A stretch of 64,000 nt of DNA from a virus. The stretch lies in the IMG/VR virus record IMGVR_UViG_3300022188_000007, positions 64,001 to 128,000 of that record, one strand, 5' to 3'. Shown one piece after another: positions 2,786-36,211 of this stretch. A program made the position numbers and the translations under genes. Within the stretch, counting starts at the first letter, position 1. Each line of letters begins with the position of its first letter. The notes beneath the pieces were generated by a model, which did no database searches, was not told the DNA's origin, and saw only the letters and a list, made by a program, of their open reading frames with translations.

Positions 2786-2786
2786 T

Positions 2787-3994: not shown

Positions 3995-3995
3995 T

Positions 3996-4967: not shown

Positions 4968-5075
4968 GGACAGGCTCGTTGCTGGTGAGATAGCCTCATT
5001 AATCCAGTGATGAGAGGACGTTTTAACTACCAACCTGAGTGCTATTTAAAAAAATAACAGGAGGAAAGAATAAAT

Positions 5076-6674
5076 ATGGCACGTAATAGAATAATTTATG
5101 CTTCACAATCCGTATGGGTTGATGGTGAAGTACTTTATAGAGTACAGTCTCTAGGTACAACTACATCTTTCACATCTGAGGATATCTTTGAGCTTGGTCA
5201 CCTTGATATTATCGATGTTGTTGATGATGTACCTGCAGTAACTGTAACTTTGAACACCAATGATTTTGGTGACGTAAAAACATTCGCTAAACTAGCACAA
5301 GTGGCTCCAGCAAAAATTGCTATGGACGCTACTGCTGATATAACTAATGCTAATCTTATTGCAAATGGAACTTATATGCATGGGGTGGCGCTAGCTGATT
5401 TCGCAGTAACTTGTGGTAATCTTACCGGTGTTACTTTATGGGCGCCAGTTCAGGACGAGTGTTCTATTGGTACTTTGGCTAATAACATTGATCAAACTTT
5501 GTTTCTCGATGAAGTGTATATCAATAGTCTGGAATACAGCTATACAACTGGAGCTAACGCTACAGAGAATTATGGCGCGGAAACAGACAATAAAATGTGG
5601 TTACTGAATGATGGTAGGTTTGTCAATTTTGAATCAACAATTTCAGGTTCTATGGCAGATACTGATGTTACTAATGCACTTAATGCTACCCATATAGGTA
5701 ATGGTTACGTCGAACTTAGTTTAGGGGCAGGTGTAATTGCTGACCTTTCAACAGGTTTAGGTTTTTTGAGAAAAGATAACAATGGAGTTTCAGCCGTCAC
5801 TCATTATAATATGGTAGCTGGAACCGCTGAAAATGTAGCAGTTGTAGCAGGAGTAGCAGCAGCTGTTGATACTTATGTTTATAATTCTACAGGACATCTA
5901 ATTTATTTCCCAACAGGGCCTAATGCTCCAGTGCTTGGGGATGTTCTTGCAGTTGTTTACTCAGCTGATGCCTATTCAGCAGCGATGAATAATTACTTTG
6001 TACCTCTAACAGAGGAAACTACTAGACCTGATGCCGTAGGCGCATTAAGACAGGGCCAAGTAGAAGTATACATTGTTGATCCAGACTCTAGTGCAGTTGA
6101 TTATGATAATGCTTGGAGATTAACTGGTGCTACTATCTCTACTGACCTTACTCGTGAACCCCTTGCGGAGCTCGGGCACTTGGGTCCTTATGATAGACCA
6201 CTTACTCTACCTATTCCAATTACTATGAGTATTGATACTACTGCTGGTGACTTGGAAAACTGGGCCAAGTTTGCAGGAAAACTGGTCGACTATGATGCAA
6301 CGACTATCCAATCTATAGATCTTACAGATCTTATGACTAAAGATAATCTGACTCTAGTTGTTAAAGTTTTTGAACAAACTGATGAAGAAGCTGGTGGGGC
6401 TACTGGTGCAGGACGTAAAGTTCTTACAGGCAGTGATATGATTGGCGACGAATATTTTCTTGACGGTACAATGACAACGTATAGCGCACTCGATCAAGAG
6501 TATGCACTTAAAACTATAGTTGTTAAAAACCTTAAGATCACCGATGAGGGTATGACCCTTGACGTTGGTTCTAATGCAACACAGACATTTGGTTTCAAAT
6601 CCAGTAATGACCTGTACGTAGTTAAAGGTGATATATCTTACGCTAACGTTAATGCTATCATGCGTAATGCTTAA
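5076..6674 (+). CDS. Major tail tube protein with two tandem tube-fold domains
   Basis: Strong GGAGG RBS, downstream hairpin, canonical position before the chaperones and TMP; internal duplication (EDIFELGH...GANATENY vs EPLAELGH...GSNATQTF). Confidence 0.7.
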   Translation: MARNRIIYASQSVWVDGEVLYRVQSLGTTTSFTSEDIFELGHLDIIDVVDDVPAVTVTLNTNDFGDVKTFAKLAQVAPAKIAMDATADITNANLIANGTYMHGVALADFAVTCGNLTGVTLWAPVQDECSIGTLANNIDQTLFLDEVYINSLEYSYTTGANATENYGAETDNKMWLLNDGRFVNFESTISGSMADTDVTNALNATHIGNGYVELSLGAGVIADLSTGLGFLRKDNNGVSAVTHYNMVAGTAENVAVVAGVAAAVDTYVYNSTGHLIYFPTGPNAPVLGDVLAVVYSADAYSAAMNNYFVPLTEETTRPDAVGALRQGQVEVYIVDPDSSAVDYDNAWRLTGATISTDLTREPLAELGHLGPYDRPLTLPIPITMSIDTTAGDLENWAKFAGKLVDYDATTIQSIDLTDLMTKDNLTLVVKVFEQTDEEAGGATGAGRKVLTGSDMIGDEYFLDGTMTTYSALDQEYALKTIVVKNLKITDEGMTLDVGSNATQTFGFKSSNDLYVVKGDISYANVNAIMRNA

Positions 6675-6691
6675 TTAGAAAGACAATATAT

Positions 6692-6727
6692 TAAGAAGGG
6701 AGGGGGATTTCCCCCCTCCTATTCTTA
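6692..6727 (+). terminator. GC-rich hairpin after the tail tube gene (terminator or mRNA stabiliser)
   Basis: TAAGAA-G-GGAGGGGG-attt-c-CCCCCTCC-ta-TTCTTA inverted repeat; U-tract is weak, so probably leaky. Confidence 0.6.
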
Positions 6728-6760
6728 GGACAAGAATATGACTAAAGGAAGGTAAAGGCT

Positions 6761-7015
6761 ATGGGAGAAAGATTTCAGGACAACAGCCGGAAAAAGCTGG
6801 TTCAAGCTATGCGTAAGGAAGTCACTAAAATGATGGAAAAGACATTAGATTTTGCTGACGTAGCTTGTCCTAAAGATAATTTTAAACAACTAAGATCTAA
6901 AATATTACGTGTGGGAAATGACTGCATGCGTAATCTTACTAAGGAGTTCGATGGGTACGTAATTGAATACGATAAACTTGGTGAAGAGATCATCGAATTT
7001 AGAAATAAAGGATAA
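6761..7015 (+). CDS. Hypothetical protein (84 aa)
   Basis: Purine-rich RBS, co-oriented, fills the gap between tube and chaperone genes. Confidence 0.6.
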   Translation: MGERFQDNSRKKLVQAMRKEVTKMMEKTLDFADVACPKDNFKQLRSKILRVGNDCMRNLTKEFDGYVIEYDKLGEEIIEFRNKG

Positions 7016-7027
7016 GGAGAAACTAAG

Positions 7028-7780
7028 ATGGTAGAAGAAATTTTTGAAGACAGAAGAAGTTTTACAGGCTCTGATGAAGAGACAGAGTACTTTATTGGAA
7101 CCCCCAGCGCAGAAGATATTCGTGGGGCTGACTGGCAATACAGCAAAGTGTACACTAAATGTTTAACTGAAGGCATCCCCACAAGTGCAGAACTTATGGA
7201 TATTTTGCGGAGACGTGGGGTAATAGGGGACGACTTTGATAGACGTGCACAAGAATTATCAATCACTCTAAACGAACTCATAACTAGATTAAATGGCACA
7301 GAGGTATACAACGACAAAGCTGCTCTAGCGGTAGAAGTTTCTCAAGCCAGAGAAGCTTTATTTCAGTGGAATCAACGTCTTAGTGGTCCTATGAGTAATA
7401 CTTGTGAGCAAATGGCTGATGACGCAAGACTTGAATACCTCACTGCTTGTATTCTACAAAATAAAGATGCTACTAAAGTTTGGGAAGACTATGATAAATT
7501 TTTGGCTTCCACAGATCAAAGTCTAACACTGAAGTCTAGATATGAGGTTATGTTATTCCTACAGGGGTATGAATCTAATTTTCTAGAGAATACACCTGAG
7601 GCTAGAGCTATGAAAGAAGTGGAGACTAGTATTCTACAGGAAGCCGCTGCAGCAGTAGAAGCGGAAGCAGCTGAAAAAATTGCAGAAGAAGCAGCGCTTA
7701 AAAAGAAAGAGAAACCAAAAACTAAGCCAAAAGCTAAAGCAAAAGCTAAAGCCAAAACTAAGCCGGCTGAAAAAAAATAA
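7028..7780 (+). CDS. Putative tail assembly chaperone with Lys/Ala-rich C-terminal tail
   Basis: AAGGAG RBS; sits between tube and TMP; helical; ends in KPKTKPKAKAKAKAKTKPAEKK. Confidence 0.5.
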   Translation: MVEEIFEDRRSFTGSDEETEYFIGTPSAEDIRGADWQYSKVYTKCLTEGIPTSAELMDILRRRGVIGDDFDRRAQELSITLNELITRLNGTEVYNDKAALAVEVSQAREALFQWNQRLSGPMSNTCEQMADDARLEYLTACILQNKDATKVWEDYDKFLASTDQSLTLKSRYEVMLFLQGYESNFLENTPEARAMKEVETSILQEAAAAVEAEAAEKIAEEAALKKKEKPKTKPKAKAKAKAKTKPAEKK

Positions 7781-7794
7781 GGAACTAATAAAGA

Positions 7795-8802
7795 ATGCTG
7801 CTAGAGGATGAGGAAGTTGAAAGACTTATTACAAGAATTTCTACAGGAGTAAGCATTAGTATAATTGGAGATAAACCAATTGTATTTAAATTCCCTAGCA
7901 ATATGGTTAAATTAGAAGCTGATGTTCTTTATGATAAAGAATACCAAGACGCTATTGATAATGGCCTATTAAATAGATCCTCATTAGAAGAATTAATTGA
8001 AAAAAGAAATTTATTCACTAGAGAGGATCAAAAGAAATTGGATGGCTTGAAAACAAAGCTAGAAGGGCAAAGAATTTTACTTGCCAAAACTACAGTTGTA
8101 AAAGCCAATCAATCTAGAATTAAGGGAGTTATGGCAAAATTAAAATCTGAGATTTATGAGCTTACTACCCAGAAGACTTCCAAGCTTATGATGTCTGCAG
8201 AAGTAAAAGCTAACGAAGAGAAGTCATTATTCCTATGTTGGAGATGTACTTTTAGAGCTGATAAATTATTATGGAAAACTTTTAAAGATTTTAAACACAC
8301 TACTGATTTAAAATTTAGAGATAAAGTTTTAACTCCATTCCTTATATTTTATTCTGGTTTATCAGCGGATGAGATTAGATTTATTGCTCGTCATAATCTT
8401 TGGCGAATTAGGTATGTTAATAGTCAAAAATTATCTGAAGCTTTATTTGGAGTTCCTTCTACAGAATATACAACTGATATGTTAAGTTTAGCATATTGGT
8501 CAAACTATTATGATAATATATACCAAATGATGTCGGAAGATAGACCTAGTGATTTAATTATAGAAGATGATGAAGCACTTGATGCTTTCATGAAAGCTTT
8601 TTACGAGGAAAGGACCCGCGAGGACGCCGCAAGGCGAAGTAAAAGTAGGTCACCAGGTAAACTATCAGCATTTGATTCCGAAGAAGTTATAGTAACAGCT
8701 TCTAATGAATTGTACCAAGATATAGAATATGATACTCCAAGAGAAGCCCAAAAACTTAAAGAGAGAAATGAAATTAAAAAAAGGACAAAGAGGACTGGCT
8801 AG
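7795..8802 (+). CDS. Putative second tail assembly chaperone (pre-TMP protein)
   Basis: Immediately upstream of the TMP; coiled-coil N-half similar in layout to the preceding gene; 'WSNYYDNIYQ...RPSDLIIEDDEALDAF' C-terminal block. Confidence 0.45.
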   Translation: MLLEDEEVERLITRISTGVSISIIGDKPIVFKFPSNMVKLEADVLYDKEYQDAIDNGLLNRSSLEELIEKRNLFTREDQKKLDGLKTKLEGQRILLAKTTVVKANQSRIKGVMAKLKSEIYELTTQKTSKLMMSAEVKANEEKSLFLCWRCTFRADKLLWKTFKDFKHTTDLKFRDKVLTPFLIFYSGLSADEIRFIARHNLWRIRYVNSQKLSEALFGVPSTEYTTDMLSLAYWSNYYDNIYQMMSEDRPSDLIIEDDEALDAFMKAFYEERTREDAARRSKSRSPGKLSAFDSEEVIVTASNELYQDIEYDTPREAQKLKERNEIKKRTKRTG

Positions 8803-14800: not shown

Positions 14801-17800
14801 TACTGTAGGTAGAATTAAGAAGAGATTAGCTGGTTATAGAGGGAGAGTTAAAGGGATAGTTGGGGAGTCTCCAGGTACTAAACAATTAACTTCTGGTGAG
14901 GTAGGTGAACTTGAAGGTATTTTAAGCACACTATTAGTTACATTAGATCAATCATCTGCCGATGAGAGAATGCTTTATAAGAATCAGCAGCATTTAAAGG
15001 GTGGTACTAGAGGTGATGTTATCAGAGCGTTTAAAGATAATAAATCTGGTGAAGGCAAATCACAGGCCCAAGTTTACCAAACTACTATAGATCAGGCTGT
15101 GGACCAACTTATAGGCCCGCAAGGAAGCCCCGACCCTAAAAATCCTCAGTGGGCCAGTAGGTATGACAAGCAGGCTAATGTATTAGGAGGTAAGGCTTAT
15201 AACGCTGGTCTAGCATCAGTAGAGCAGTTCGCCAAAAGCTTGAATGTACAACCATCTGATTCTGAAGATGACTTAAAGAAAGCCCTTCAATCATTAGAAA
15301 GAGCGAAAATTGAATACTATAATACCTTGGCTACTTCTGCTTTAGGTAAGACAGGTTCAGTACAAGAATTTCTATTTAATAGAAAAATGCCAGCAGTAAT
15401 GGGCAAAGCCATAAATGCTACAGTGGATAAAACAGAGGATCTAGATAATTTTAGTAAAGAACTGCTTTCAATCAGCTCGTCTGCTGGAGGTATAGGGGTA
15501 GATTTAAGTGCTTTAGAGGAAGCCTCTGAAAATATAAAAAAAATAAAAATAGAGCATGCTGAAAATGTGGAGAGTGCGCGTTCTAAAGGGATGCCTGTAT
15601 TAACTCAACATCAAGTTGGTATCCCTGAAAGTTACGCATCTAAGCTACCTACTAACTTTGCTAGAAGGTATGAGGTAGATGGAGGAACCGTACAAGAATT
15701 AAAAAAACCTATTTTTGAAAAATCTAATTTAGCTAAAATGTTGGATTATAGAGAAGAGATACAAGGAGCCCTTGATAATGTAGCCCCCGGTATGCGCTCT
15801 AAGATGGAAGCCTATTTGGAATCAGAGCTTTCTCCTTATTTAGAAAGTATGCGTTTCCCTGTCACAGGTGTAGCGTCTATTCAGCCATATGAAGCCAAGC
15901 TATTAAAACAAGGAGAAGGTCGTCAAATGACCAAACATACTTTAATGGCCCCAGGTATGCCAGAGATAGATATGGGTAAGTTTGATGCAGCTAAAAAACA
16001 AGTTGACTCAGTAATTGACGAACTAACCGAACAAAGAAAACTAGAGTATAAAGAAGAGTCCCCTGATCTGGAAAGAATAAATCAGTTAACTGCTACTATA
16101 GCCGCACTAGATAAGGCTATCTCTGATGTAATTCCTAAGTTTATAGCAGTCCAACAGAATCTAGATTTTGACGGTGATCAGATACAATTACACGCCGCTA
16201 AGACAGCTCTAGCGAGGCAAGAAATTTCACAACACTTTAAAACTATAACTGATTATGATAAGCAGGGAGGCACTACTGCTCAAGCTTTAAGAGACCAATC
16301 CACCTATAAAGCTTTAATACCATCTACAGAGAAATATACTTTAGCAGAACAGCAGATAGCCTTTTCAAAGAAGTTCCCAGAAAAAGAAGGGTTCGGTTTT
16401 ATGACTAAACCTTTCCTTACTGAGGGGCTAGATTATTTAAAACCTCAAGAACAACTAGATATTTTAAGTACTTTTCCTGGAGCTGGTGGAACAGAGAATA
16501 CCCCATTAACTGTTTTAAATAATCTATTACCAGAGCTTTTTAGAAATGAAAAACATATGGCTAAAATTGCCATGACATTGCAGGCAGTAAAACCGGAAGC
16601 CGGTAAAGATACCGCATCCAGTCAAGCGCTATTAAACGCATTAGCAAAAATGAAGCCGGTAGAAGACCAACCCAGTAGTGGTAGAGAAAAGGCCGTATTT
16701 GAAGAAGGTATAAAGACTAAGTTATATGATACTAAAATGACTAATGCTATTAATGCCAACTTTTTTAAACTTAATACCGGACAAGACACTGAAGCTCTGA
16801 ATAGGCAGTTGAAGTTATTTGAAAGAAACTTAGGGTACGGTGGCGGAGTTATACGACAGGGTGCTCAATATGAGCCTACTGCTAATTTAGCAAGTCGTTT
16901 TCCCCTAGACCTTAAATCCATGGGCAACACAATGGGGGAAGAACTACATACCATGATGAATGAGTTTTTACGTGTAGGGGTACAGAAAGGGCTGGATGTA
17001 AAACATGCTGGAGAGACCCCAATTGCTACTGAAATGGCAAATCTAATATCTAAAGGGTCCCCAGGCGTTTCAAGCTTAATAGAAAAGATAAATGCCGGAG
17101 AAGGCTCATACGGCGACCTTACTGATTTTGCAGAGGCAAATAAGAAATCCTTAGGGCGTAGATTAGGTGGTATGTCTACCGAAGATTTGTATCTTGATGC
17201 AGCCAGTATTGCTGGAGGTAGAGGTGAGTCTACTACTAAACTAGATCCAGGTAATAGAGAAGAGCTTAAAGAATACATCACTAAATCTATAGGATTTGAG
17301 GGCTTTCTTCACGAGCTGAGTAATCAAGTAATTGAAGCGGCGCATGAAGGGCTTATGAAGTCAGTTAGTGCTTGGTCCGATACCAAAAAACAAAAAGAAT
17401 TTAAAGGTAGTTCAGCAGAAGACTATGTAAAGGCTTCTATTAGAAAACAACTTAAGGGTGACGGTATTAATATATTGGATTCAGCGGAAAGTCCTCTAAT
17501 GCCTTTATATAAAATGAGGACCTCTGGCGCATCAGGCTATCAACAACGTGGTCTATATCAGGATAAATATGGTGACGTAGAGGCTCCTGAACTCGAAGGA
17601 ATCTTCCAAGGCAAAGAGGCTGATGCTTATGCCGCTAAGTATAAGGAAGCTAAAGCAGTAGCTAAAAATATACAGGATGCTCTTATAGACTTTAGTTCTA
17701 ATAAAGGTGGTAATAAGAAAGGCAGTTATTCAATGCTACTTGAAAGCAGTATAGAGAATATCTACGCTGATCAGAAAGAGATTATGAAGTTAGTACAGGA

Positions 17801-20800
17801 AATGACACTTGAGAAAGATAGAACTTCTTCAAGTGTAATGGATAGATTAAGTGGTGACGCACCTATGCATGGTTTTGCCAGGGAAGCTCTAGGTAAGAAG
17901 AACAGTAAAACTCAGAAAGAATTTCTAGAGAAATATAGTAGAATTGTAGGAGTTCCTAGCCTAGGTCAAGAATCCACAGCACTTCTGAAACAAGAGTATC
18001 TTCCTCAGGCAGCTTTCCTAGCTAATGCAGAGAAGGGGCCAGCACCACTTCAAGGTGAAACTACAGACGGAGCATATCAAGATATATTAGATGCCCATGA
18101 TAAAGCTGTAGATAAGTTAAAAGAACAATATCTAGCGGATGCTATAGTAATAGCTCAAACAGATAATATATTAAAAGCAGCCAAAACTAAAACAGGAGAA
18201 GCAACCTTTTTAACGCAACTACTCCCCACCTCTAAAGGTGATTATGCTAGTAAATCTTATGATGATCGTAGACAACGTATATCTCAAATCGCAAAGGAGA
18301 AAGTCCAAAGAGCTAATTTTGAACAACTCACTCATCCAAGAGGCTTAGAGAGAGATGCTTTTGGCAGATCAATGCCAAGTGGAGGAGGTCCAGGAGGTCC
18401 AGGAGCACTGAGCGTAGGTGGTACAGGGCCAATTGTGGACGTAAATATTGCTAGTGTTGCTGAAGGTGTAGGCGTCTTCCTAGGAAGGGCAGCCGGAATG
18501 GCCAAGACTACTGAGGATACTAGTCCTAGATTTACAATTTCTGAAGAATTAGAAAAAAAATTAGTAAGGGCTGAGGAGATAGTAGATGAGATTACCGGTG
18601 GTTTAAATAAGGCTACAGGTGATAGTTTTGCTAATAAATATAGAGCCAGTGGGTTAAAGGGAGGTCAAGGGCTAGACCAAATAAATGAAATTAAAAAACA
18701 GATGCAGGGCATCAAAGCGGGTAGGAAAGCCCGAGATATTCTAGATTCATCATCTTTACTAGGTACAGGCATTCATGCTAAACTAGAAGATAGTTATAAG
18801 AAGGAGTATATAACAGAGAGACCAGTCAGGTACGACTCAGTAGCTGGAGAAATCTCTGGCACAGTAGATGCAATTAAATATGATGATAATGAGATTGCTA
18901 CTCATATAGTAGATATTAAAACTACAAGTCAAAAGAACTACGACGATTTAAAACAAGCTGTAGCTAGATTCCAAGAAAAAACTGGTAAAGAAACTCCTAC
19001 ACTAGATGAGATAAAAGACTATGTAGGTAAGAATCTAAAAGATAGTAAATTAGGTGATGTAGCCTCTCAGCTGAATCTATATCTTGCTGCCACCAGTGAG
19101 GATGCTAAAGCATCCGCTCATTTCTATAGTAGAACTAACCCTGATCAAGAACCTATTAAGCTAGACCAGTTTTTTGATAAAGAGCGGCTAGATAATGATG
19201 TTGCTGCGGTAGGTCAAGCTAGAAGGGAGATTAAGTTGGAAGGCGGATCATTCGCTAAAACAGCTTCTTATACTGAAGCCGAAGAGATAGAAGTTTTACT
19301 GAAAAAGAAAGAAGTGGCCGAAGCAACTATAGCTGAATTAATAGCTACCAGTACAGAGTATTATACACTAGTAACAAAGCAGGGTCTCCGTGCAAGAAAG
19401 AATCTACCTTCAACAGGCGGCCTATCTGATAAAAGTTTAAATATGATAGGTACACGTGCTAGAGAATTTCAAGCACAGTCTGTTAAATTTGATGATATGG
19501 TTACAGCGAATCCTATAGCTGAAGGTCGAGAGACTTATAAAGTGCATCAGAACCTTAATGTGCTGCATGAGCGTGCTAAATATTTTCAACAAAAAGAGGG
19601 TTATGAAACGTCTGGTCCCCGGTTTGATAAAATGCACCCCCAGATCCAAGAAAGAGTAACGGAGCACGGCGAGAAGGGCCCAGGGGGCGCAGCCTTTAGT
19701 GCCCTAGTGACTGAGCTTAAAGATACTGGTAAAATTGAGGGCGGAGAGATTAATGCAGCATGGAAGGCATACAGATTAGCTGTGGGGGATTACTTTGTTA
19801 AAAAGATGGCTGCTGCAAGAAAGGAATTAGATAATACAGACCCAGGGGCTGATAATATAGTAAATGTTTTCGGTGCCTACCAGAAGTCTGTTCAAGCTTT
19901 TCAGGATTTTGCTAAGCATGGTCTAGGCAAACCTACAGATATTTATACTTATAATAAACAGTACTTACATGCAGAATCTGCAAGAGGGGCCGGAATTTAT
20001 ATGGATTCAGCTGCCCTTCAAAAAAAAGCATCTCAGCCTCTAGGAGAAGACCCCACATTACGTAATATCTTCCAAAATATGACTAATCTAGAGGGCGACT
20101 CGGTACCAATTCCTAGAGATTCTGTTAGGGCAGCATTGGAAGATTTAATGGATATGGATAGATCATTGATTAATCTTTATACAAATGCAGAAAAAGTAGC
20201 CCATATGGGCAAAGATATAAATCTAGGATGGAATTTTGATAAAGTAAAAGGCGGATTATCTAGATTAAGAGCAGCCCTAGACTTACAACTGAAACAACCA
20301 GTAGGTGAGCTTTATAATGAAGATCAGATAACCTATCTTAGAACAGTTTTAAAGGAATTAAAAGGACTGGAGACTATTTATATCAGCCTAGATCTGGATA
20401 CAGACTCTTTTAAGAATCCCACAGGTGAATATAAATTCCCGACTTTAGTTCCTGTACCGAAACAATTATCTAGAGACCAGCAGTCTGCCATGCATTACCA
20501 GAATATTGAAAAAATTAAAGGTCATTATAGAACACCAGAGGCAGAAGGTGGGGCCAGGGAAGGGGATTCCTTTGTTTATAATGCTAAGACTTTCGGGCCT
20601 AGCGGTAAACAGATGGATAACCAGAGATTTGTAATTTCTAAATACGGTGAAGCAATAAATAGTGCAGGGAAGTCTGTTCCAATTCTGAAAAGTAGGCTAG
20701 ATAACTTAAATAAATCCTTAGTGGACGGTAACAGAACTTTCAGTGTTGCTATAGAGAGAGTAGTTAAATGGGGCGCAGCCGCCACACTAGTTTATGGTGG

Positions 20801-23800
20801 ACTAAGTTATATTAAAGATGCTGTTAAACACATGTCTGATGTTGAGACTGCTATGGCTAGATTACAGATGGTGATGAATCCATTAACTACTGATTTCGAC
20901 TCTCTACAAAAAGCAGCTTTAGGTTTTGCTAAGCAGTATGGTGTGGAGACTACGGATGTTTTAGGTAGTATGAAGGTATTTGCACAGCAAGGTTTGAGCC
21001 AAGGGGAAGTAGAAGAGAGGACCCAAACTTCTACATTAGCAGCTAATGTTACAACTTTGAGTGCTGTAGACGCTACTGAAGCCTTAACTGCAGCTATGAA
21101 GGTATTTAGAGCCGAGGGTGAGAGTTCTATGAGGTTCTTAGATTCTTGGAGTCAAGTAGAGGCAAGGGCAGCTATTACAGCCGGCGATTTAGCCGATGCC
21201 ATAAAAAAATCAGCTTCTGCTGGTAGGAATGCCGGGTTCACTTTTGATGAGTTGAATGGTATGGTAGCTGCTATAGGGTCTACTACACGTCAAACAGGTA
21301 AAGAGGTAGGTACTTCTTTAAGATTTATCTTCAGACGAATTTCAGCGGATAAAGGACCTAAAGCTCTAAAAGGTGTAGGAGTAGCAACTACTACACCGAA
21401 AGGCACACTCAGACCTGGTTATAAGGTACTTGAGGATTTGGCAGGTAAGTGGGAAGAGTTAGAACAAGCTCAAAAACTAAGTATAGCCCAGGCTATTGGT
21501 GGTACTCGTCAGTACAACCAGGTATTAGTATTGATGGATAACTGGGACCAAGTAGTGAAAAGCACAACCGATAGTATGAATGCTAAAGGTTCAGCTGAAA
21601 GAAGAAACCTTAAGTTGATGAAAACTTATTCTAAGCAATTAGAACAAACTAAAGCAGTCTTTTCTGCGTTAAAAGTAGAAGTAGGTAAAGTAGTTCTTCC
21701 TAGTTTTAAAGCAGGTCTAACCGGTATAAGAGGATTGGTAGAAGCGGTGAATAATGTCCCCGCATCTTTTAAATTAGCTGGAGCCGGGATGGTGTTATTT
21801 GTGGGATATATAACTAAAGGGGCTGAGGCCCTTAATACCATAATGAGCCTAGTAGATAGAACTAAACTTTCTTTTTCAGCCCTAAAAGATGATTTTTCTA
21901 AAGGGATAGATAAAGGGATGTTTGAGGTCTTTGGTAAAGGTACTCCAGAGCTAGATTCAGATTTATTTGGTCTTTCTAAGTTAAGTGATACTGGTACTGT
22001 AAATATTGATGATATGGAAAGCTCTTTAGGTAAGTTAGCTTTCGGGGCTTTATCAGCAGGTCAAGCCTTCAATAAATTCGCAGGCATAGTAGGCTCTGAC
22101 TCTGCGTCTGCAGTTTCTGCAGTCGGTAAATACGTGACAGCCTTTGGCGCTCTAGTAGAAAAAACAGGCACCGGTATATCTTTAATACCAGGGATACCTG
22201 GTCCAGTAGACGAAGCTGTAGGGGTAGCAACAAGCTTTACAGGCAAAGCAATAAAAGGTACTGGCGGAGCTTTTGATTTTGTAGGTGATAAGGTGGGTAA
22301 AGGGGCCCAGTCCTGGATGGAGGGCTTTGCTTCACAGAATACATCTGCAATGAAATCAATGGCCCCACTTTTAGGTACATTAGGGGGGATAGCTTTATTA
22401 GCCCCAACAATAATAGACGCATTCAAAAACTTAACTCAATCTGCAACAGACTATAAAGATGAGCAGTTAAATAGGTTGGAGGTAGATGCTAAGGAGATTG
22501 ATTCTCTACAGGGATTAATTACTTCATATAAAAATTTACAAGATCAGAAAGAGAAGATAACTAGATTATCAGACCCAAAGGTTCAGGCTAAGGGTATAAA
22601 ACGTGGCGAATATAAAAGCCCTATCTTGGAAAAGATTGACGCTTTAAAGGCTACTAGAACATTTGATTCTAACTTAGGCGCTATGGACCCTAGCATGATA
22701 GCAGGTTTCGATGAGTTTGGCCGTGTAATATTAAGTAATACAGCTAATCTAACAGGATATCTAGAGGAATTAAAAAGAGCCAAGACTGTCACACTAGCCT
22801 TATCTAAACTTAAAATAGCAGCCCGTTTTACAGACGATCTTACTGAGACGGGGGGCAATCAAGAATGGAAGCAGCAGGTTAAATCACTTGCAGCCGAATT
22901 CCCATTAATTGGTGAAATGTTGGCTAAGAATATCACTGTAGGGCCTAAGAAAGCACTAGAAGTTATAAGAGAAGAGCTAGATCAACTTTTAGCGGCTAAA
23001 GCAGAAGCCCCTATGTCTACGGCATTTGATTCAGACATAGAGAGATCATTAACAGCACATGCTAAAGTATTAAAAACTTTCAGTGCTACATATGCAGAAC
23101 TAGGTAAAACCTTAAGTAGTATAAGTACTGAAGGTGCTACTGTAACTGATATCGCGGATCTATATAAATCACCAGACGCATTGAAGACGTTTGATCTTCA
23201 GGCCGCATATGAAGATAAATACCAGATTGCTGAAGTAAGGGGAACTGTTAGTGGTAGAGACATCGCAGCATCTAAAGTATTAAGAACTCAATCAAGTGGA
23301 CTGGGTTCTTATATAGAAGCGTCTAGTGTTCTTACTGAAGCTAATTTATTTTCGGCAGGACGATTACCTAGGAAACCCAAGAAAGATGGCACTATAGGTG
23401 CATCAGATAATGACCTTGTTACACTTAATAAAAACTTTGCAGAGAAATATGGTATTGCTACAGGCCAAGCTACTTTGAAAATAGGTAAAGACCATAAGTT
23501 ATTCTTAGAATTTATAGACGCACTCACAACAACCCCGACTACTAAAGAGTTTTCACAAGCAGAAATTGAAGCAGCAGCAAGAGCTTTTTTCCCTGTTGAT
23601 GAGATATTACAAAAGGCCCAAATAAGTGTAACTAAGCTTAATACTTTTGTAGCTGGAGCGTCAGCAGGTATATTAGGGGTATCTGAAAAAAAATTAAATA
23701 CACGTCAGTTTGATTTAGGTGAACGCTTCTACGATCAAATTCCTACTAATGTATTATTACAGACTGAAAAAGGTTACAATACAAAAACAGGTACTTTTGG

Positions 23801-29800: not shown

Positions 29801-32273
29801 GAAACAGCTTACTGACTACTGGCAGTCTGTGGGTAAGGCTGCTCCAAGTAAGTTTGCTGATGGAGGGAATGTCGATGAAGAAGAGCCTGTGATTGAGTGG
29901 GGACATACTACTGCTAAAGCTGTCATGGATAAATGGACAGCGGAAGCTAAAGATGCGGCTATGTATAGATCGTTACATGCTATGTCTAGTGCTGAAGATT
30001 TTGCATTAAAATTGGATAGAAATAAAAAAGCTAGAACCGACATGACCAGAATTCTAGCTGATAACGAATACTTAGATAAAGACACCCAAGAAGGGTATGA
30101 TTATTCATTTGATAAACACCGAGGATTAAGAATACTTACTGATGAAGATTCGGGGGTGAAGGTAGGTAGAGTAATTACTAAGTCATATCGTTCTGTAGAT
30201 GAAAGTTATAGACCTAGATCTATGGCAACTGTTAAGAAACAAGTACATGACCCATTTGCTATATCCGAAGATGCTTATTCTTCTGGCGCGCTTACTGATT
30301 TCTCCGAGAGATTATCTCTAGACAGTAACTATGGTAATGAGGCTTTTAGGTACCACGGTGAGGGCCGTGATATATGGAAGAATATGCAACGCTATAAGAA
30401 ATTATTTTATGGCTCTCCGGGTGAAAGTAAAGCATCTGAAGGGTATTTAGCAAAATTTCAAGCAGGCCAAAAGAACCTTGATAAAGTACGTTTAGTGATG
30501 AAGGTTTTAGAAGAAGGTGGTAATATTTATGATGACTCCAGACTTCAACAGAAAGTGGGCGGACCAGCTAGGTTAGAGGCTTTTGATTTTGGAGGTAAGA
30601 AAGGTACTGTAGATATACCTACTAGAAATTTCAAAAGAGCTGAACTACTTAAAGAATTACAAGCGTTATATGGGGATGAATCTCAAGGGGCCATCATTAG
30701 TGCTGAGAGGATAAAGAATGAAATCTCCGCTTTAAACGCGCAGAAAATAGAAACTTCTGATGGTACAGTGGAATACATAAGGGCAGATGAACAGAAATAT
30801 ACGTCTGTTTTACAGGATATTAAAGACGCCGCCGTAATTGCACGAGGTGAGTTAGATCCTAAAGGCAAAAATGCAAGAAGACGGGCTGTTACAAGAGCTC
30901 AGTCCCCTCTATTATATAATTATTCTAATACGCTACGGGACAAAGAATTGGCAAGAGCAGGGTTCCTAAAGCAGACTGGCCCACCGAAAGATTTTTCCGA
31001 CTTCGATAAAAAAGATATTCCAGATATGAAAAAATGGCTGGCTGCTGGAGATTATGGCTATGTAACTAGTGACACAGTGCAACGAATGAAGGACTTTATT
31101 ACGAGTGAGACATACAATGTGGGTGGTGTAGCTACTAGATCTATGCCAGTTAAACATTTTGGCGGTGTGGTAACACAAACTGGCCCAGTATTTGCTCAGA
31201 AAGGTGAATACATTATACCTAAAGGATTTAAAGATGGTACTTCGGGTTTGGGTGGTGTAACCTCCAGTCCAGCTTCCCAAGCTTTAACTTCAGGATCGAT
31301 GAGATTAGATGGTTCTGAGGTATTATCACAATTAAATAGTTTAAGTTTAAAGGTGGATAATACTACGGTTAAGGTAGACACTACTGAGGCAGCAAGTAGA
31401 CTATCATCTTCTATTAGTGATGCTTTTAGTGGTATAGAACCATTTAAAGTAGAAGATAAAACTCTATTAGTAGAAGATAAGGTTTTCTCAGTAGAAGATA
31501 AAAAGTTAACTGTGGAAGATAAAACTTTTACTATTGAAGATAAAACTTTTAAGGTAGAGGATAAAATTTTCTCAGTAGAAGATAAAAAGTTAACTGTGGA
31601 AGATAAAACTTTTACTATTGAAGATAAAACTTTTAAGGTAGAGGATAAAATTTTCTCAGTGGAAGACAAAAAATTAACCGTGGAAGACAAGGTTTTTACT
31701 ATTGAGGATAAGGTTTTTAAGGTAGAGGATAAAATTTTCTCAGTGGAAGACAAAAAATTAACCGTGGAAGACAAGGTTTTTACTATTGAGGATAAGGTTT
31801 TTAAGGTAGAGGATAAAGTACTAACAATAGATGCTTCTAATATTTCAGTAGATATCGGCGATGCAGAGGCTAGATTAGCTTCAGCGATTAGCAATGCGAT
31901 TAGTAGTGCGGTAGTTAATATAAAAGTTGAGGCCCCTACTACTGGAGGGTCAGTCGGCGCGGATAAATTCGATCAGTTAGCCCAAACAGTATCAGATGTA
32001 AACGATAAACTTATAAGTAGTTCTGTGATTATGGAGAGTAGAGTGAAGATTTTAGAAGGGGGTATAGACTTAGTTGTGGATGAAAGCGTGGAAAAAAAAC
32101 TAGCTTCTAAATTGATGAGTATTAATGAAAGTGTAACAGGGGCTCTCTTGAGTGTAGATACTGTAGCTAATAATGTAACCACTCAAATAGATAGTATAAG
32201 ACGTGAGTCTAACGAAATAAAATATCTAGCACATATGGCTTTAAATGCTAGAGGTTCAGGAAATATAACTTAA
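8868..32273 (+). CDS. Giant tape measure protein (7801 aa) fused to a two-barrel RNA polymerase and a PD-(D/E)xK nuclease
   Basis: Single uninterrupted ORF with TTG start after AGGGGGG; position after tube and chaperones; TP901-like TMP core at aa ~3960-4280; RNAP and nuclease motifs in the N-half (see sub-features). Confidence 0.9.
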   Translation: MVKKYIFEHASNESKTSSKSGGSKGVAVVELSKSDQANQKKVHDGLREIKEVLKKQTKDTSSSALMRMLEKVIKASGQSSKISSAELKTLATAFANELSRKGFGGSGSATVSGPQGKALDPNIIAKAISNQIAPALKSVFKSLETKDIKIDPKSQEALRKAMESSVSDIIPSKFYKVINDLNSTLTSVLALSKTSLKAFNSAKGMASDKGGLEVKEITGFYTNLKKGSSELKTLVGHISSLVREADKLPAELRAAAKGMIDAAREAKDKTVRGARAVREGAQVPQAKLVKEVTKLLASEIKKHTTGSTNPAVNNLIKALDTFSSSADELTKLTKALDNFGKSIGSLQSDGGVDLKGLQGVLGKLEKTISAIPTEIKGGAVKSDEWKDFIDQANKVINTVKTLVVKIQLPKDEIDRFVKQLPGEFDVVANIDISNVPKAIKEITKPVGIPVKTIFSADDIQRRLRYEHPEISVTQRITTVHKQVEEYQSSKSGKAVKEVSLPNAKSEAVKFSKDLNTSVNNLIKVLEGLSKVHATAYGKPVAQGSAGDIASDRISELIHKIQDKRGNTSQLREYVDKTQGHAHKTGILSQAARDGIKEVYEILHSTTDDVFNSVKKSSDQATKNLESVSKAFDAVNKSSKQMADTAKNNLAQTQPSTIPSSRHGATSVNTARQAPASTQKEVYKYFEGNITPGKTANIDAGKKLNLGEDSRKIVQEHVSGLANSLLDLQSYMVSTLEKEFAKVRKESNSGKDWRIVGKTDTGSISDYFKLTEGYNQKTSGNEYSFKIADVKNLKRVTGSKTNDPTALISKFKEGVFKELLAKNEATIAESIGRWMKRFSESDISSWKGLDSSTARQLADIKSTHDKGQGTAPSKRMVEAIKGLGATDPSALNRIFEKTISDIEATRRLGERKYGSSVLVKKIAIPAAKLSATGAATIDTATGSKRIIPKFATYKTGFEKVFESLQKTKTFDVEQDYQGKVRKLGIRPSGTQFEEANKVAKAMLIDLSRVKDIVNATGQTTVDSGAVRADLAKQLETSVVLKAGKLEKSKHVTSASDVLAKIDKSIYAEFASGTKTMEEFIAATSKAGVSAYDLVKGMESIDFQNIYQIFQKILEGTDSVSSPLKAVGKNPDFSKSVRDLESYIGKMVGTIPIADPSRPRRASHQEKVINLMSMTSPIYSQKGKVGTQGLTAEGQKQFLRDLNLSLREFVRDTAILKDAGMGQGRLPADVRTLSSLGVPESQAGTISEYRKDGRNENTKYLAALNATTVKMYSDSLSEMAPFGAQFQQLGRNISNTTNAMAYRPGGGGVGTDFPSLRSERETKLISGGRYGDKGYGFNVIAELRNTASTFEDQIVISGKLADVLTSVTKTIVQPDKLGRLNLVGSDGQVSSSQEGRVGDIKPDQQLIGAIETANKVFQDVLGVKQEYRGRADNALIKEVTSALTTVRGKDVQVQSAKIAETFFNHYGRKFTTRYGSKGVSITAPGGTGELTGKQLKDLYADKKVKVLSKSERATAGLGTVALPKSMGQLVQEIYKEYAKELGLSNADLDESRKALINSGNKFMLSMFTDSSLGVVPEGKDVKAQQTLFTKTKKALAKLDFDLAKDISGIEGLIEVYKGMDGSKLYEEKPIDIRISSHGIAKRGLQAENLEAIMNNVIDAGVAGSTSLKTKFDPSTYKRLLGTEEDTTGKFPSLSEISKALGFESQGNPKKRGLLVKDMMKLLKSRNVPGTEDKLLAQAGKLADLEIGSSFYSDMRDEFGKSRKSLIGPKFVEVIEDPNANPAWSETDIKKQVAGQKINIPAFGAYATVFGEQSQFIKQMTSSIPLDSKKHWEYLKALQVLNDDSSEMATQLLSSAQEVDVSSLRTFTKSTGKFVSRASMSNITEMPEEDQERVLNDTILDIAKFPGAMNLKIPSTKDPSKRESFYVPGALARTTYPEPSLAGERGLDMTARRLQAVVNAAKNVDEVAGQSDESGSKKLWNTVGRIKKRLAGYRGRVKGIVGESPGTKQLTSGEVGELEGILSTLLVTLDQSSADERMLYKNQQHLKGGTRGDVIRAFKDNKSGEGKSQAQVYQTTIDQAVDQLIGPQGSPDPKNPQWASRYDKQANVLGGKAYNAGLASVEQFAKSLNVQPSDSEDDLKKALQSLERAKIEYYNTLATSALGKTGSVQEFLFNRKMPAVMGKAINATVDKTEDLDNFSKELLSISSSAGGIGVDLSALEEASENIKKIKIEHAENVESARSKGMPVLTQHQVGIPESYASKLPTNFARRYEVDGGTVQELKKPIFEKSNLAKMLDYREEIQGALDNVAPGMRSKMEAYLESELSPYLESMRFPVTGVASIQPYEAKLLKQGEGRQMTKHTLMAPGMPEIDMGKFDAAKKQVDSVIDELTEQRKLEYKEESPDLERINQLTATIAALDKAISDVIPKFIAVQQNLDFDGDQIQLHAAKTALARQEISQHFKTITDYDKQGGTTAQALRDQSTYKALIPSTEKYTLAEQQIAFSKKFPEKEGFGFMTKPFLTEGLDYLKPQEQLDILSTFPGAGGTENTPLTVLNNLLPELFRNEKHMAKIAMTLQAVKPEAGKDTASSQALLNALAKMKPVEDQPSSGREKAVFEEGIKTKLYDTKMTNAINANFFKLNTGQDTEALNRQLKLFERNLGYGGGVIRQGAQYEPTANLASRFPLDLKSMGNTMGEELHTMMNEFLRVGVQKGLDVKHAGETPIATEMANLISKGSPGVSSLIEKINAGEGSYGDLTDFAEANKKSLGRRLGGMSTEDLYLDAASIAGGRGESTTKLDPGNREELKEYITKSIGFEGFLHELSNQVIEAAHEGLMKSVSAWSDTKKQKEFKGSSAEDYVKASIRKQLKGDGINILDSAESPLMPLYKMRTSGASGYQQRGLYQDKYGDVEAPELEGIFQGKEADAYAAKYKEAKAVAKNIQDALIDFSSNKGGNKKGSYSMLLESSIENIYADQKEIMKLVQEMTLEKDRTSSSVMDRLSGDAPMHGFAREALGKKNSKTQKEFLEKYSRIVGVPSLGQESTALLKQEYLPQAAFLANAEKGPAPLQGETTDGAYQDILDAHDKAVDKLKEQYLADAIVIAQTDNILKAAKTKTGEATFLTQLLPTSKGDYASKSYDDRRQRISQIAKEKVQRANFEQLTHPRGLERDAFGRSMPSGGGPGGPGALSVGGTGPIVDVNIASVAEGVGVFLGRAAGMAKTTEDTSPRFTISEELEKKLVRAEEIVDEITGGLNKATGDSFANKYRASGLKGGQGLDQINEIKKQMQGIKAGRKARDILDSSSLLGTGIHAKLEDSYKKEYITERPVRYDSVAGEISGTVDAIKYDDNEIATHIVDIKTTSQKNYDDLKQAVARFQEKTGKETPTLDEIKDYVGKNLKDSKLGDVASQLNLYLAATSEDAKASAHFYSRTNPDQEPIKLDQFFDKERLDNDVAAVGQARREIKLEGGSFAKTASYTEAEEIEVLLKKKEVAEATIAELIATSTEYYTLVTKQGLRARKNLPSTGGLSDKSLNMIGTRAREFQAQSVKFDDMVTANPIAEGRETYKVHQNLNVLHERAKYFQQKEGYETSGPRFDKMHPQIQERVTEHGEKGPGGAAFSALVTELKDTGKIEGGEINAAWKAYRLAVGDYFVKKMAAARKELDNTDPGADNIVNVFGAYQKSVQAFQDFAKHGLGKPTDIYTYNKQYLHAESARGAGIYMDSAALQKKASQPLGEDPTLRNIFQNMTNLEGDSVPIPRDSVRAALEDLMDMDRSLINLYTNAEKVAHMGKDINLGWNFDKVKGGLSRLRAALDLQLKQPVGELYNEDQITYLRTVLKELKGLETIYISLDLDTDSFKNPTGEYKFPTLVPVPKQLSRDQQSAMHYQNIEKIKGHYRTPEAEGGAREGDSFVYNAKTFGPSGKQMDNQRFVISKYGEAINSAGKSVPILKSRLDNLNKSLVDGNRTFSVAIERVVKWGAAATLVYGGLSYIKDAVKHMSDVETAMARLQMVMNPLTTDFDSLQKAALGFAKQYGVETTDVLGSMKVFAQQGLSQGEVEERTQTSTLAANVTTLSAVDATEALTAAMKVFRAEGESSMRFLDSWSQVEARAAITAGDLADAIKKSASAGRNAGFTFDELNGMVAAIGSTTRQTGKEVGTSLRFIFRRISADKGPKALKGVGVATTTPKGTLRPGYKVLEDLAGKWEELEQAQKLSIAQAIGGTRQYNQVLVLMDNWDQVVKSTTDSMNAKGSAERRNLKLMKTYSKQLEQTKAVFSALKVEVGKVVLPSFKAGLTGIRGLVEAVNNVPASFKLAGAGMVLFVGYITKGAEALNTIMSLVDRTKLSFSALKDDFSKGIDKGMFEVFGKGTPELDSDLFGLSKLSDTGTVNIDDMESSLGKLAFGALSAGQAFNKFAGIVGSDSASAVSAVGKYVTAFGALVEKTGTGISLIPGIPGPVDEAVGVATSFTGKAIKGTGGAFDFVGDKVGKGAQSWMEGFASQNTSAMKSMAPLLGTLGGIALLAPTIIDAFKNLTQSATDYKDEQLNRLEVDAKEIDSLQGLITSYKNLQDQKEKITRLSDPKVQAKGIKRGEYKSPILEKIDALKATRTFDSNLGAMDPSMIAGFDEFGRVILSNTANLTGYLEELKRAKTVTLALSKLKIAARFTDDLTETGGNQEWKQQVKSLAAEFPLIGEMLAKNITVGPKKALEVIREELDQLLAAKAEAPMSTAFDSDIERSLTAHAKVLKTFSATYAELGKTLSSISTEGATVTDIADLYKSPDALKTFDLQAAYEDKYQIAEVRGTVSGRDIAASKVLRTQSSGLGSYIEASSVLTEANLFSAGRLPRKPKKDGTIGASDNDLVTLNKNFAEKYGIATGQATLKIGKDHKLFLEFIDALTTTPTTKEFSQAEIEAAARAFFPVDEILQKAQISVTKLNTFVAGASAGILGVSEKKLNTRQFDLGERFYDQIPTNVLLQTEKGYNTKTGTFGKQDYKEDYSSDFIDKYYDPLQKYNTAKSALGGDNASLDASVLGGLAEQLRGLQDILKNNSIAFQYRAAIEDLNKALYEGARATRKSILVEQERQKVDKHTAGFMRGKTKGVASIDQGVTNYKDLNDQQRASLMFKDYDALAKKILVQETSIEGLIGQSKSVASTYADIQEIGKAPEGFDAIMTRGRNVELMSIMDKVDNDKGAAQISMRVSELKSPLEGILANTDIMAANTYGRPGDIKRAAATAEENLVIAEQRKLAGKGPLDNTVDNKTDPVKTFKSLQKLMTIRDAAAKEGDTVTVRALDNTLADSYGRALKVYGMKDFARLTKLVAPTKFFSSNNKELVASRASALAQKGIGTTPDRMMQSIESAKMAKAALRTQSFIDKLTAFKAPEKEIERAKNRQWYVPSKEVRDYEKAYATDPSKPLINPKIFEKALIAGAILPAFQGKSLGEKRTTIEDQINRLQKQKDNYPKEGKEAEKLGIDKKIEGYQKILTDDLDPQQFVTSTLQGLSTTALAAYEGVGIFGGSQSDKENMAAVGAGLFVIMKSLESRIGKDNMPQYFKDFSKEAVDKIKIAVETGDYSDMANDLGKKTKKFLKGFNKSMEAQTEKAEDAGIDPEKDIRERRKRLKKLNATLDLESTTKSLNEVTDVGSNNLLRGLEAIAVVMTAQAVGGWKSKKGETAARVKDGVNVAKQQGLASLAYSEKNAAAVDAYIGKLVLTQKELAEKKGPDGGAINIVMDVMEDFKTSLTLAAAEGKTLEEAMSGLQDKIGDTKVFTGIYTDVAKLIGAMENFRAELQKSFTTFDDKRLLDPTRSLKGELLGFGGETTLPIGRRDMSTQQRAYAGGSDSLRSSFAVMSKGILIQEAQIKTLGFVRSQIADTEQNIDFGTKYGTSDSQLEAWEMHLKGLEGTLANLQNVTTLTSQQLQALGTSMRGAIKYSEAINKLNDALADVSVEHAVTGITGLKTYFDSFEVLLGGSDPLAAQPVSPEQERMGAKVGVRLVSGESTSMDIERAQLLTEIKNATDSKSRTAASIKLGDLDEKYRRLGIDKEQQVENQRLGSTMKPYEDFYRNMEGLLGSNELNDKQYGEISGVKNEFKEAMKRATEKIPIDEAIAQLEGQKDNLGANQFKEAMKELVAMKATGTTQVYRGMDRTKDWQGIMSRVMAGYDKEIDAYKAATGTTDLDTSLENMVTNPLVNVIGMSNLLLAELVTHFVDKKTAADILNGPQKKELEPDYLFSSIVPDKKVVLAEAQDFLKGISINPADNLKTQPYDFNNDNIDPNRGRPTLFGRPVGPISKDALGLPPIQDKVVPPPPTEVELAAKKHPRFKEMETYVKNISLDPIANLKTEPFGPNSEQDNSQIVAVNELQLVTLKKIATSLSSNGSGDSTEPTTKAAGGRIFGEGGPREDKVPAYLSPGEFVIRAAAAQRLGYENLDVMNKKGQVPVAFESGGSLNQRHITQAHQYFVDPDAVLPPEFNPESELYNKGITGKYIDLRKSMLSEEQREAVAGISTLKGLYNTFSDMAGNDEDKLNSLFPEDIMPVMERFEENKKAQEEKGILGWMKGKLKTKNKATAGARAVTGLDKAELLKEISTYADGGRTISTVTGKPIPTAEETEEGMAKMREALGFVASVGHPITSIPTSIYGMYQGFKEKGLSAQPAVEGFGGLELLNYIPQAKRLGKMKTILSKGFGRYFDNAGDVNDYFDITGKLGGKLTSSHGDDFDALLASENTFEEGGLSLWDKLLGKQFDPTERWKGKKLPSGMGKFDKPEVTKKLEDEIKATKRHDVHSFSFLREKHGFVKALQLYGAGSRLQEGADILKKADGGKIRSFIGDSTGVAEVGEELFNERINAPVLTRSVASMIKSEFGTSDVGNNQLGAPVDKLMGTSFDPSATMLKDSRAFTAVGNNIKSYASTADFNTGRAKSDKLKGNIGKGNIIPGMDGLTSIYDGFLTSKYNSPFLSQEEQSNNRAWYEATREQEITNKQKYELLGDAKTDADRKQLTDYWQSVGKAAPSKFADGGNVDEEEPVIEWGHTTAKAVMDKWTAEAKDAAMYRSLHAMSSAEDFALKLDRNKKARTDMTRILADNEYLDKDTQEGYDYSFDKHRGLRILTDEDSGVKVGRVITKSYRSVDESYRPRSMATVKKQVHDPFAISEDAYSSGALTDFSERLSLDSNYGNEAFRYHGEGRDIWKNMQRYKKLFYGSPGESKASEGYLAKFQAGQKNLDKVRLVMKVLEEGGNIYDDSRLQQKVGGPARLEAFDFGGKKGTVDIPTRNFKRAELLKELQALYGDESQGAIISAERIKNEISALNAQKIETSDGTVEYIRADEQKYTSVLQDIKDAAVIARGELDPKGKNARRRAVTRAQSPLLYNYSNTLRDKELARAGFLKQTGPPKDFSDFDKKDIPDMKKWLAAGDYGYVTSDTVQRMKDFITSETYNVGGVATRSMPVKHFGGVVTQTGPVFAQKGEYIIPKGFKDGTSGLGGVTSSPASQALTSGSMRLDGSEVLSQLNSLSLKVDNTTVKVDTTEAASRLSSSISDAFSGIEPFKVEDKTLLVEDKVFSVEDKKLTVEDKTFTIEDKTFKVEDKIFSVEDKKLTVEDKTFTIEDKTFKVEDKIFSVEDKKLTVEDKVFTIEDKVFKVEDKIFSVEDKKLTVEDKVFTIEDKVFKVEDKVLTIDASNISVDIGDAEARLASAISNAISSAVVNIKVEAPTTGGSVGADKFDQLAQTVSDVNDKLISSSVIMESRVKILEGGIDLVVDESVEKKLASKLMSINESVTGALLSVDTVANNVTTQIDSIRRESNEIKYLAHMALNARGSGNIT
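11630..17050 (+). other. Domain: single-chain beta/beta'-like DNA-dependent RNA polymerase inside the TMP (aa ~920-2720)
   Basis: Collinear motifs: TFEDQIVIS (12909), GRKFTTRYGSKG (13260), PIDIRISSHGIAKR (13746), GKTGSVQEFLFNRKM (15345), HQVGIP (~15609), MRFPVTGVASIQ (15849), NLDFDGDQIQLH (16158). Confidence 0.9.
18640..19230 (+). other. Domain: RecB/Cas4-like PD-(D/E)xK nuclease inside the TMP (aa ~3260-3450)
   Basis: GTGIHAKLE (18762), ERPV, ISGTVDAI (18858), IVDIKT (18912), QLNLY (19068) appear in canonical order. Confidence 0.8.
20739..21720 (+). other. Domain: TP901/PhageMin_Tail-type tape-measure core
   Basis: 'VETAMARLQMVM...ALGFAKQYG...FAQQGLS...TLAANVTTLSAVDATEALTAAMKVF...AGFTFDELNGMVAAIGSTTRQTGKEVGTSLRFIFRRI...IGGTRQYNQVLVLMDNW'. 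Confidence 0.88.
31443..31820 (+). repeat. Coding tandem repeat: 18 x 21-nt (xx[V/I]EDKx heptads), including 4 x 84-nt higher-order units
   Basis: 84-nt units start at 31485, 31569, 31653 and 31737; units 1 and 2 match each other, as do units 3 and 4. Confidence 0.95.
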
Positions 32274-34314: not shown

Positions 34315-34317
34315 AAA

Positions 34318-34902: not shown

Positions 34903-34917
34903 GGAGCTTAAAAATAT

Positions 34918-35909: not shown

Positions 35910-35923
35910 GGAGGAATATAAAA

Positions 35924-36211
35924 ATGACAAGTATTAGCAGTGGTTTAGAGTATCGTTTGAGGGCAGGGAGTCCAATGCCTACGTCTTCCCCAGGGGTGTT
36001 TGTACTTCATTCATTTATGGCAACGCTTTCATCTGTATACATTGACGATTGTGCCTCAAGTTTACCCTCAAGTAGTCAATTTCAAGGCCAAAGTTCAGGA
36101 GGTTATTTATCCGCTAGTTATTCCAGATTACCTTTATCTGAAGAGAGGTTTAAAGGTAAGATAAACGAGGGCCCGGCCTATGTAAGCGAATCTGCAGGAG
36201 GATATAATTAA
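35924..36211 (+). CDS. Hypothetical protein
   Basis: AAGGAGG RBS; co-oriented in operon. Confidence 0.6.
   Translation: MTSISSGLEYRLRAGSPMPTSSPGVFVLHSFMATLSSVYIDDCASSLPSSSQFQGQSSGGYLSASYSRLPLSEERFKGKINEGPAYVSESAGGYN

Follow-up and report, generated by a model that had tools for sequence, protein, structure and literature searches.

A predicted PD-(D/E)xK nuclease carried as an optional cassette inside giant RNA polymerase/tape-measure proteins of uncultured phages

We considered a 64,000-nucleotide stretch of virus DNA (the window; bases 64001-128000 of the 144.5-kb IMG/VR virus record IMGVR_UViG_3300022188_000007, which is estimated to be 55% complete), and within it a single giant open reading frame (ORF; 8868-32273, plus strand) whose 7,801-residue product appears to include a DNA nuclease. 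From its N-terminus the protein comprises an N-terminal region, a single-chain RNA polymerase (RNAP), the predicted nuclease, a helical spacer, a TP901-type tape-measure core and a long C-terminal part; all window coordinates given below are on the same strand. The RNAP region gives a weak match to PF00623, and its metal-binding motif DFDGD (aa 2433-2437, 16164-16178) is conserved in homologs and lies approximately 800 residues upstream of the nuclease. The tape-measure core (aa ~4014-4212, 20898-21647) matches PF10145 (PhageMin_Tail, E=2.1e-27), and the tape-measure PHROGs match the protein with a best E-value of 1.8e-72 (phrog_4211). One polypeptide here holds both a tape-measure domain and a DxDGD polymerase motif, the combination by which proteins of the type of gp96 from the Thermus phage P23-45 are recognized. 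An initial annotation of this DNA had placed a RecB-like nuclease between the RNAP and the tape-measure core, and the positions of these two landmarks agree with that placement. The nuclease motifs are likewise in frame with the giant ORF, although the start originally assigned to them, 18640, is one base out of codon phase, the codon beginning at 18639, and 18640-19230 translated as it stands therefore contains many stop codons.

The folded nuclease domain occupies aa 3240-3470 (18585-19277). The AlphaFold2 (AF2) model of this segment, with a predicted local distance difference test (pLDDT) score of 91, contains the core alpha-beta-beta-beta-alpha-beta fold of the PD-(D/E)xK superfamily, its elements following in the order (domain numbering) helix 47-71; strands 76-85, 88-99 and 105-114; helices 116-133 and 149-169; strands 175-182 and 191-195; and helix 199-218. 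Every strong match to the model from Foldseek and from VIA has a restriction-endonuclease-like fold. The initial annotation had named two findings in advance that would speak against a nuclease, namely the lack of this fold in a predicted structure and variation of the catalytic residues among homologs; the fold is present in the model, and the catalytic residues are constant, as described below. The sequence-only evidence for the fold is weak. The Cas4-like phrog_1706 matches the domain (E=7.6e-6) and PF12705 (PDDEXK_1) does so at E<=1 in just three of ten family members, the matches to both falling on the D3349-I-K3351 stretch. Sequence and profile searches of the PDB sequences with the domain gave nothing meaningful, and the YqaJ family PF09588 has no match in this record or in related records. 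Going by the model, the segment falls within the PD-(D/E)xK superfamily, in its Cas4/RecB/lambda-exonuclease branch, as a nuclease that depends on metal and has no iron-sulfur (Fe-S) cluster, and we consider it very probable that the predicted nuclease is active.

We inspected an alignment of 65 copies of the domain, taken from the clusters returned by the HMMER scan discussed below and from further giant proteins found via their RNAP region. The copies are 19-70% identical (median 28%) to the one in the 7,801-residue protein, and all 65 share G3299, H3303, E3317, G3331, D3334, K3351, Q3401 and Y3405. The conserved residues occupy the positions usual for the family. Motif I (GTGIH, 18762-18776) contributes G3299 and H3303 within the first long helix (47-71), and H3303 is presumably a metal ligand, by analogy with His956 of RecB. 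The invariant acidic residue E3317 (18816-18818) lies on the first core strand (76-85), motif II (G-T-V-D, 18858-18869), with G3331 and D3334, on the second (88-99), and motif III, the (D/E)xK sequence D3349-I-K3351 (18912-18920), on the third (105-114); D3349 is an aspartate in 64 copies and a glutamate in one. The QxxxY motif (Q3401-L-N-L-Y3405, 19068-19082), with N3403 conserved in 64 of 65 sequences, follows on the next helix (149-169). QxxxY is typical of nucleases of the RecB, Cas4 and lambda-exonuclease type. There is also a YRAS motif (aa 3258-3261, 18639-18650), whose serine, S3261, is kept in 61 of the 65 copies. The motifs quoted in the initial annotation (YRASGL at 3258, GTGIHAKLE at 3299, ERPV at 3317, ISGTVDAI at 3329, IVDIKT at 3347 and QLNLY at 3401) proved exact in letters and residue numbers, and its claim of a complete RecB/Cas4-type motif set is borne out, except that the glutamate of "AKLE" (E3307) varies, being Q in 34 and E in 27 of the 65 copies, while the invariant acid is E3317 in "ERPV".

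Just past the nuclease fold is a further short motif, F-A-K-T-A-S (aa 3462-3467, 19251-19268), which is kept in most family members; its threonine and final serine (T226 and S228 in domain numbering) are invariant in the seven closest homologs. This motif may form a final strand, or it may serve in docking or as a site of processing.

None of the 65 domains contains a single cysteine, and thus none has an Fe-S cluster like those of Cas4, AddB, EXO5 and Dna2. The initial annotation had noted the missing Fe-S cysteines in the domain, and the absence turns out to extend over the whole 7,801-residue protein, which has no cysteine at all; in the rest of the record's ORFs (150 aa or longer) cysteine makes up 1.2% of the residues, a frequency that predicts about 95 in a protein of this size. 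Each of the related proteins (approximately 7,500 aa) has between zero and four. Cysteine avoidance on this scale would make sense as an adaptation to unfolded passage through the tail and the envelope, and strong avoidance of this kind may be a signature of tail-ejected proteins. A constraint on passage would also explain the recruitment of a cofactor-free nuclease rather than one with an Fe-S cluster.

The domain is known solely from RNAP/tape-measure giants of uncultured phages, on contigs of up to 325 kb. A HMMER scan of 1.84 billion representatives returned just 22 related clusters, all of them either giants of 4.5-8 kaa or pieces of these, and there were no free-standing members of the nuclease family among the 22. 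Homologous giants found via the RNAP region form 70 protein clusters, again of 4.5-8 kaa. We called presence or absence of the nuclease with jackhmmer, which recovers the divergent copies in P0054, P0056, P0039 and P0077, and found it in 60 of 72 giant RNAP-tape-measure proteins and not in the other 12. In the nuclease-less proteins, BLASTP similarity to the 7,801-residue protein ends near aa 3124-3203 and restarts near aa 3538-3588, with a linker of 63-222 residues in place of the missing segment. These breakpoints delimit an excisable cassette of about 335 residues (aa ~3202-3537, 18471-19478), which is preceded in the 7,801-residue protein by the Gly/Pro-rich linker SGGGPGGPG (aa 3171-3179, 18378-18404). 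The spacing from the RNAP catalytic motif to the core is approximately 1580-1620 residues with the cassette and 1200-1300 without it.

In a tree built from concatenated RNAP and core segments, the domain occurs on both sides of the midpoint root, and the 12 absences need six changes, at least five of which are forced by well-supported branches. The cassette has been lost cleanly in at least five independent events. No relocated copy of the nuclease was found in a nuclease-less record that is 86% complete (four nuclease-less records were searched, three of them incomplete). As 12 of the 72 giants lack the nuclease, and P23-45 gp96 lacks it as well, neither the polymerase nor the tail needs it, and it is best described as accessory: an optional cargo that is kept active by selection and yet has been dropped several times.

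One clade of the giants (P0054, P0056, P0057, P0062, P0066, P0070, P0073, P0078 and P0080) carries, besides the PD-(D/E)xK domain, a DEDDh exonuclease of the RNase T/DnaQ type (PF00929) near the N-terminus; in P0054 it lies at aa ~235-420, with the motifs VAVDLET, NIKGFD and HDATFD. Between the nuclease and the tape-measure core, members of this clade also have an additional insert of about 165 residues, Gly/Pro-rich and helical. We considered the possibility that the PF00929 domain replaces or follows the PD-(D/E)xK module, and this is ruled out, as the extra 165 or so residues are linker and the DEDDh motifs are near the N-terminus.

Three related records, two with a nuclease-less tape-measure protein and one with the cassette, encode a separate Cas4-like protein of 388-427 aa (L056, 1486-2652; L057, 1066-2349, minus strand; L058, 1447-2664). 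These stand-alone proteins match PF12705 above the cut-off (E~1e-28) and have four cysteines, as in a Cas4-type Fe-S site. In the two loci examined, L056 and L057, the gene adjoins a gene for a DnaJ-like zinc-finger chaperone. It is kept irrespective of the tape-measure cassette, and we found none in the record of the 7,801-residue protein, of which only the 55% mentioned above is available. The stand-alone and tape-measure nucleases belong to the same superfamily, but the tape-measure domain lacks the four cysteines and falls below the Pfam cut-off. We considered a recent duplication of the stand-alone gene into the tape-measure protein and dropped the idea, because in an hhalign comparison of the tape-measure family profile with the stand-alone nuclease the alignment was confined to the LGTxxH motif and fell short of significance. 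This lack of significant profile similarity indicates that the tape-measure copy is a distinct family with a specialized role, and not a general recombination exonuclease.

Several further features of the giant protein and its surroundings deserve description. The spacer between the nuclease and the tape-measure core (540 residues, aa 3471-4010, 19278-20897) is predicted to be mostly helical with one three-stranded sheet (AF2 pLDDT 77), and its atlas features are tape-measure-like. Foldseek found no match between this spacer and solved structures at E<=0.001, and no further enzyme was found in it. The spacer is conserved throughout the family, the residues invariant in 21 copies including F3610, G3687, D3691, Y3693 and T3694 (142, 219, 223, 225 and 226 in spacer numbering). 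Toward the C-terminus there is a tandem 28-residue repeat (EDKxFxVEDK..., at about 31400-31800). The giant protein was found again on a 318-kb contig (P0002), where it is shorter by 56 residues, exactly two repeat units, and otherwise identical, the two versions diverging at nucleotide ~31608; the difference may be either strain variation or a collapse of the repeat in assembly.

The neighboring ORFs (1-8802 and 32290-43429; 14 scanned, 10 per library) gave no match to the PHROGs, and the ten scanned with Pfam gave only matches below cut-off (HNH and CapR), in ORF 1913-2785. The 290-residue product of this ORF has weak C-terminal similarity to HNH endonucleases, through PF13392 (E=2.4e-4) and PF01844 (E=6e-4), both below cut-off. 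No cultured relative was found by blastn or tblastn among 50,697 phage records, and no sheath protein (PF04984) was found in the record or in one relative that is 100% complete. The phage lineage is very divergent and probably has a long, non-contractile tail.

Our interpretation is that the giants deliver an active DNA-end nuclease to the site of DNA entry, where it would most likely trim the end of the phage genome that enters first; we put the probability of this reading as a whole at about 0.5. The tape measure of long-tailed phages has its C-terminus at the tail tip and is ejected before the DNA. With the C-terminus at the tip, the N-terminal half should exit last, beside the leading DNA end. 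There the nuclease, flanked by the Gly/Pro-rich linker and the helical spacer, would refold next to the RNAP where the entry channel opens into the cytoplasm. Enzymes of the Cas4/RecB/lambda-exonuclease structural group act on DNA ends, mostly in the 5'->3' direction. The nuclease could carry out a limited resection of the first-entering genome end, and possibly of the end that enters last. This would leave a 3' single-stranded tail on which host enzymes of the RecBCD/AddAB type act poorly and which might be usable for annealing or for polymerase loading. Resection of this sort would be accessory, of help to the phage but not indispensable. The parts of this reading differ in likelihood. It is probable that the nuclease is delivered into the cell, because it is fused to a tape measure and because of the precedent of P23-45 (PMC10770324), while the proposal that the phage's own genome end is the target is distinctly more tentative.

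Several points weigh against the reading just given. The profile search suggested in the initial annotation, with PDDEXK_1 and Cas4-like models, does return matches to the domain, but both are below threshold: PF12705 scores 16.8-20.3 bits, with a Pfam gathering cut-off of 22, and TIGR00372 (Cas4) scores 18.4 bits (E=0.0015), with an NCBIfam cut-off of 65. The cassette has been lost repeatedly, so end resection cannot be essential, and P23-45 manages without a fused nuclease. Chewing its own leading end, the likely site of pre-early genes, could harm the phage unless the activity were tightly limited. Finally, the DEDDh domain of one clade, a 3'-5' exonuclease, suits a protein that destroys foreign nucleic acid no less than one engaged in controlled resection. 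Destruction is in fact what the main rival explanation proposes: the nuclease, whether released or still tethered, would be an injected weapon that degrades the DNA of the host chromosome, plasmids, competing phages or defense systems. Conflict genes are typically optional and repeatedly lost, as this cassette is; the presence in one clade of a second nuclease, with the opposite polarity, in the same protein would suit an attack; the active site is invariant; and it has been proposed that injected "polyvalent" proteins with several enzymes work in this manner, according to a citation in PMC7824862. We saw no self/non-self mechanism such as DNA modification, for which no systematic search was made. 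Only a few copies of the tape-measure protein are expected per virion, and tethering at the membrane channel, which is probable, would limit their reach, so that a local task is more plausible than the wholesale destruction of host DNA; moreover, enzymes of this branch require DNA ends, and an intact chromosome has none. We therefore regard a weapon as rather unlikely.

The nuclease and the RNAP might also form one entry-site machine. When the leading genome end comes out behind the tape measure, its 5' strand would be removed by the tethered nuclease, and the neighboring sigma-less, single-chain RNAP would start pre-early transcription on the single strand left behind. If so, these phages would have a tail-delivered, end-dependent start of transcription that also shields the end from RecBCD/AddAB; in lineages that lost the cassette, promoters active on double strands would have evolved or a host nuclease would be in use. 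We think such a machine improbable, and the related idea in the initial annotation, by which the virion RNAP depends on the nuclease for its template, is weakened by the 12 of 72 giants that keep the RNAP without the cassette and by P23-45 gp96, which has none. The nuclease might instead act on RNA, by processing or terminating the transcripts of the adjacent RNAP, by cutting host mRNA like herpesvirus SOX, or by acting on 5' ends like DXO/Rai1. Both SOX and DXO/Rai1 share its fold, but we consider an RNA role very unlikely. About equally improbable is that the domain serves to hold a DNA end, gripping the genome terminus in the virion and pulling the DNA in behind the tape measure with little or no catalysis. 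The family does thread DNA ends, the N-terminal half of a siphophage tape measure is the part nearest the head and the DNA end, and the fused RNAP of P23-45 acts only beside the first-entering end; however, binding alone would not require all the metal-binding and catalytic residues to be invariant in 65 divergent copies, and the cassette is dispensable. Least likely of all is that the N-terminal half is never delivered, being cleaved off or used only in assembly, for example to trim DNA at the head-tail joint. The flanking Gly/Pro-rich linkers could be processing sites, but the fused RNAP of P23-45 is in the virion and is acting 5 min after infection (PMC10770324). The complete absence of cysteine over 7,801 residues also points to passage outside the cytoplasm. 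The RNA, end-holding and non-delivered roles all rank below resection of the phage's own leading end, which we continue to favor.

Tape-measure proteins have long been viewed as rulers and channel formers. The study of P23-45 in 2024 established that a tape measure can deliver an RNA polymerase (PMC10770324), and uncultured giant phages of a large and widespread group appear to build a predicted DNA nuclease into the same tape-measure/RNAP protein. If so, cutting of DNA by the phage may take place at the entry site within the first seconds of infection. Such a nuclease would be the counterpart of host enzymes like SNIPE, which lie in wait at the tape measure to cleave the DNA of an incoming phage (PMC13190303). 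The domain is a compact, cysteine-free and cofactor-free nuclease of the predicted Cas4/RecB type, one that must presumably refold after ejection, and its expression and assay should be straightforward. Natural pairs of sister phages that differ in the cassette (P0012/P0036, P0023 and the P0044-P0067 clade, P0028-P0032/P0041, and P0058-clade/P0026-P0042) lend themselves to a direct comparative test of its purpose.

The nearest relatives of the domain by fold and motifs are enzymes of well-studied systems, and it differs from each of them. Cas4 (Sulfolobus SSO0001, PDB 4ic1; Pyrobaculum Pcal_0546, PDB 4r5q) is defined by a four-cysteine Fe-S cluster, which the tape-measure domain lacks; the domain also has no CRISPR context and is embedded in a 7,801-residue structural protein. 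Compared with lambda exonuclease, LHK-Exo and YqaJ-type enzymes (PDB 1avq, 3syy and 3k93) and RecE, it is only 8-13% identical, has no match to PF09588, and is accompanied by no annealase partner that we could identify; those enzymes, moreover, are free-standing toroidal oligomers made after infection, not virion cargo. The domain has the same fold and motif set as the nuclease domains of RecB, AddB and AdnAB and as EXO5, MGME1 and Dna2, all of which are DNA-end-dependent nucleases. The RecB site, formed by a histidine, two aspartates and a lysine, matches H3303, D3334, D3349 and K3351. These enzymes serve helicase motors or repair, whereas the neighbors of the tape-measure domain are an RNAP and a helical spacer, with no helicase.

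The closest architectural parallel is P23-45 gp96 (L061), which is likewise a giant tape measure with an N-terminal DFDGD RNAP and is likewise free of cysteine, over 5,002 aa. However, gp96 has no PD-(D/E)xK domain by Pfam, by two family hidden Markov models or by motif search, and carries an M23 peptidase instead. A tblastn search with the RNAP region and with the nuclease found no match in a phage collection that includes P23-45 (EU100883). The P23-45 paper mentions no nuclease in gp96, and it establishes the fused RNAP, the only such fusion to have been studied, as a virion protein (PMC10770324). At 5 min post infection this RNAP binds only the 9 kb adjoining the first-entering genome end, and the authors propose that it sits at the tape-measure pore during passage of the DNA (PMC10770324). 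Our literature search found no paper on a nuclease within a tape-measure protein or beside a tape-measure-fused RNAP. The fold and the chemistry of the domain are well known.

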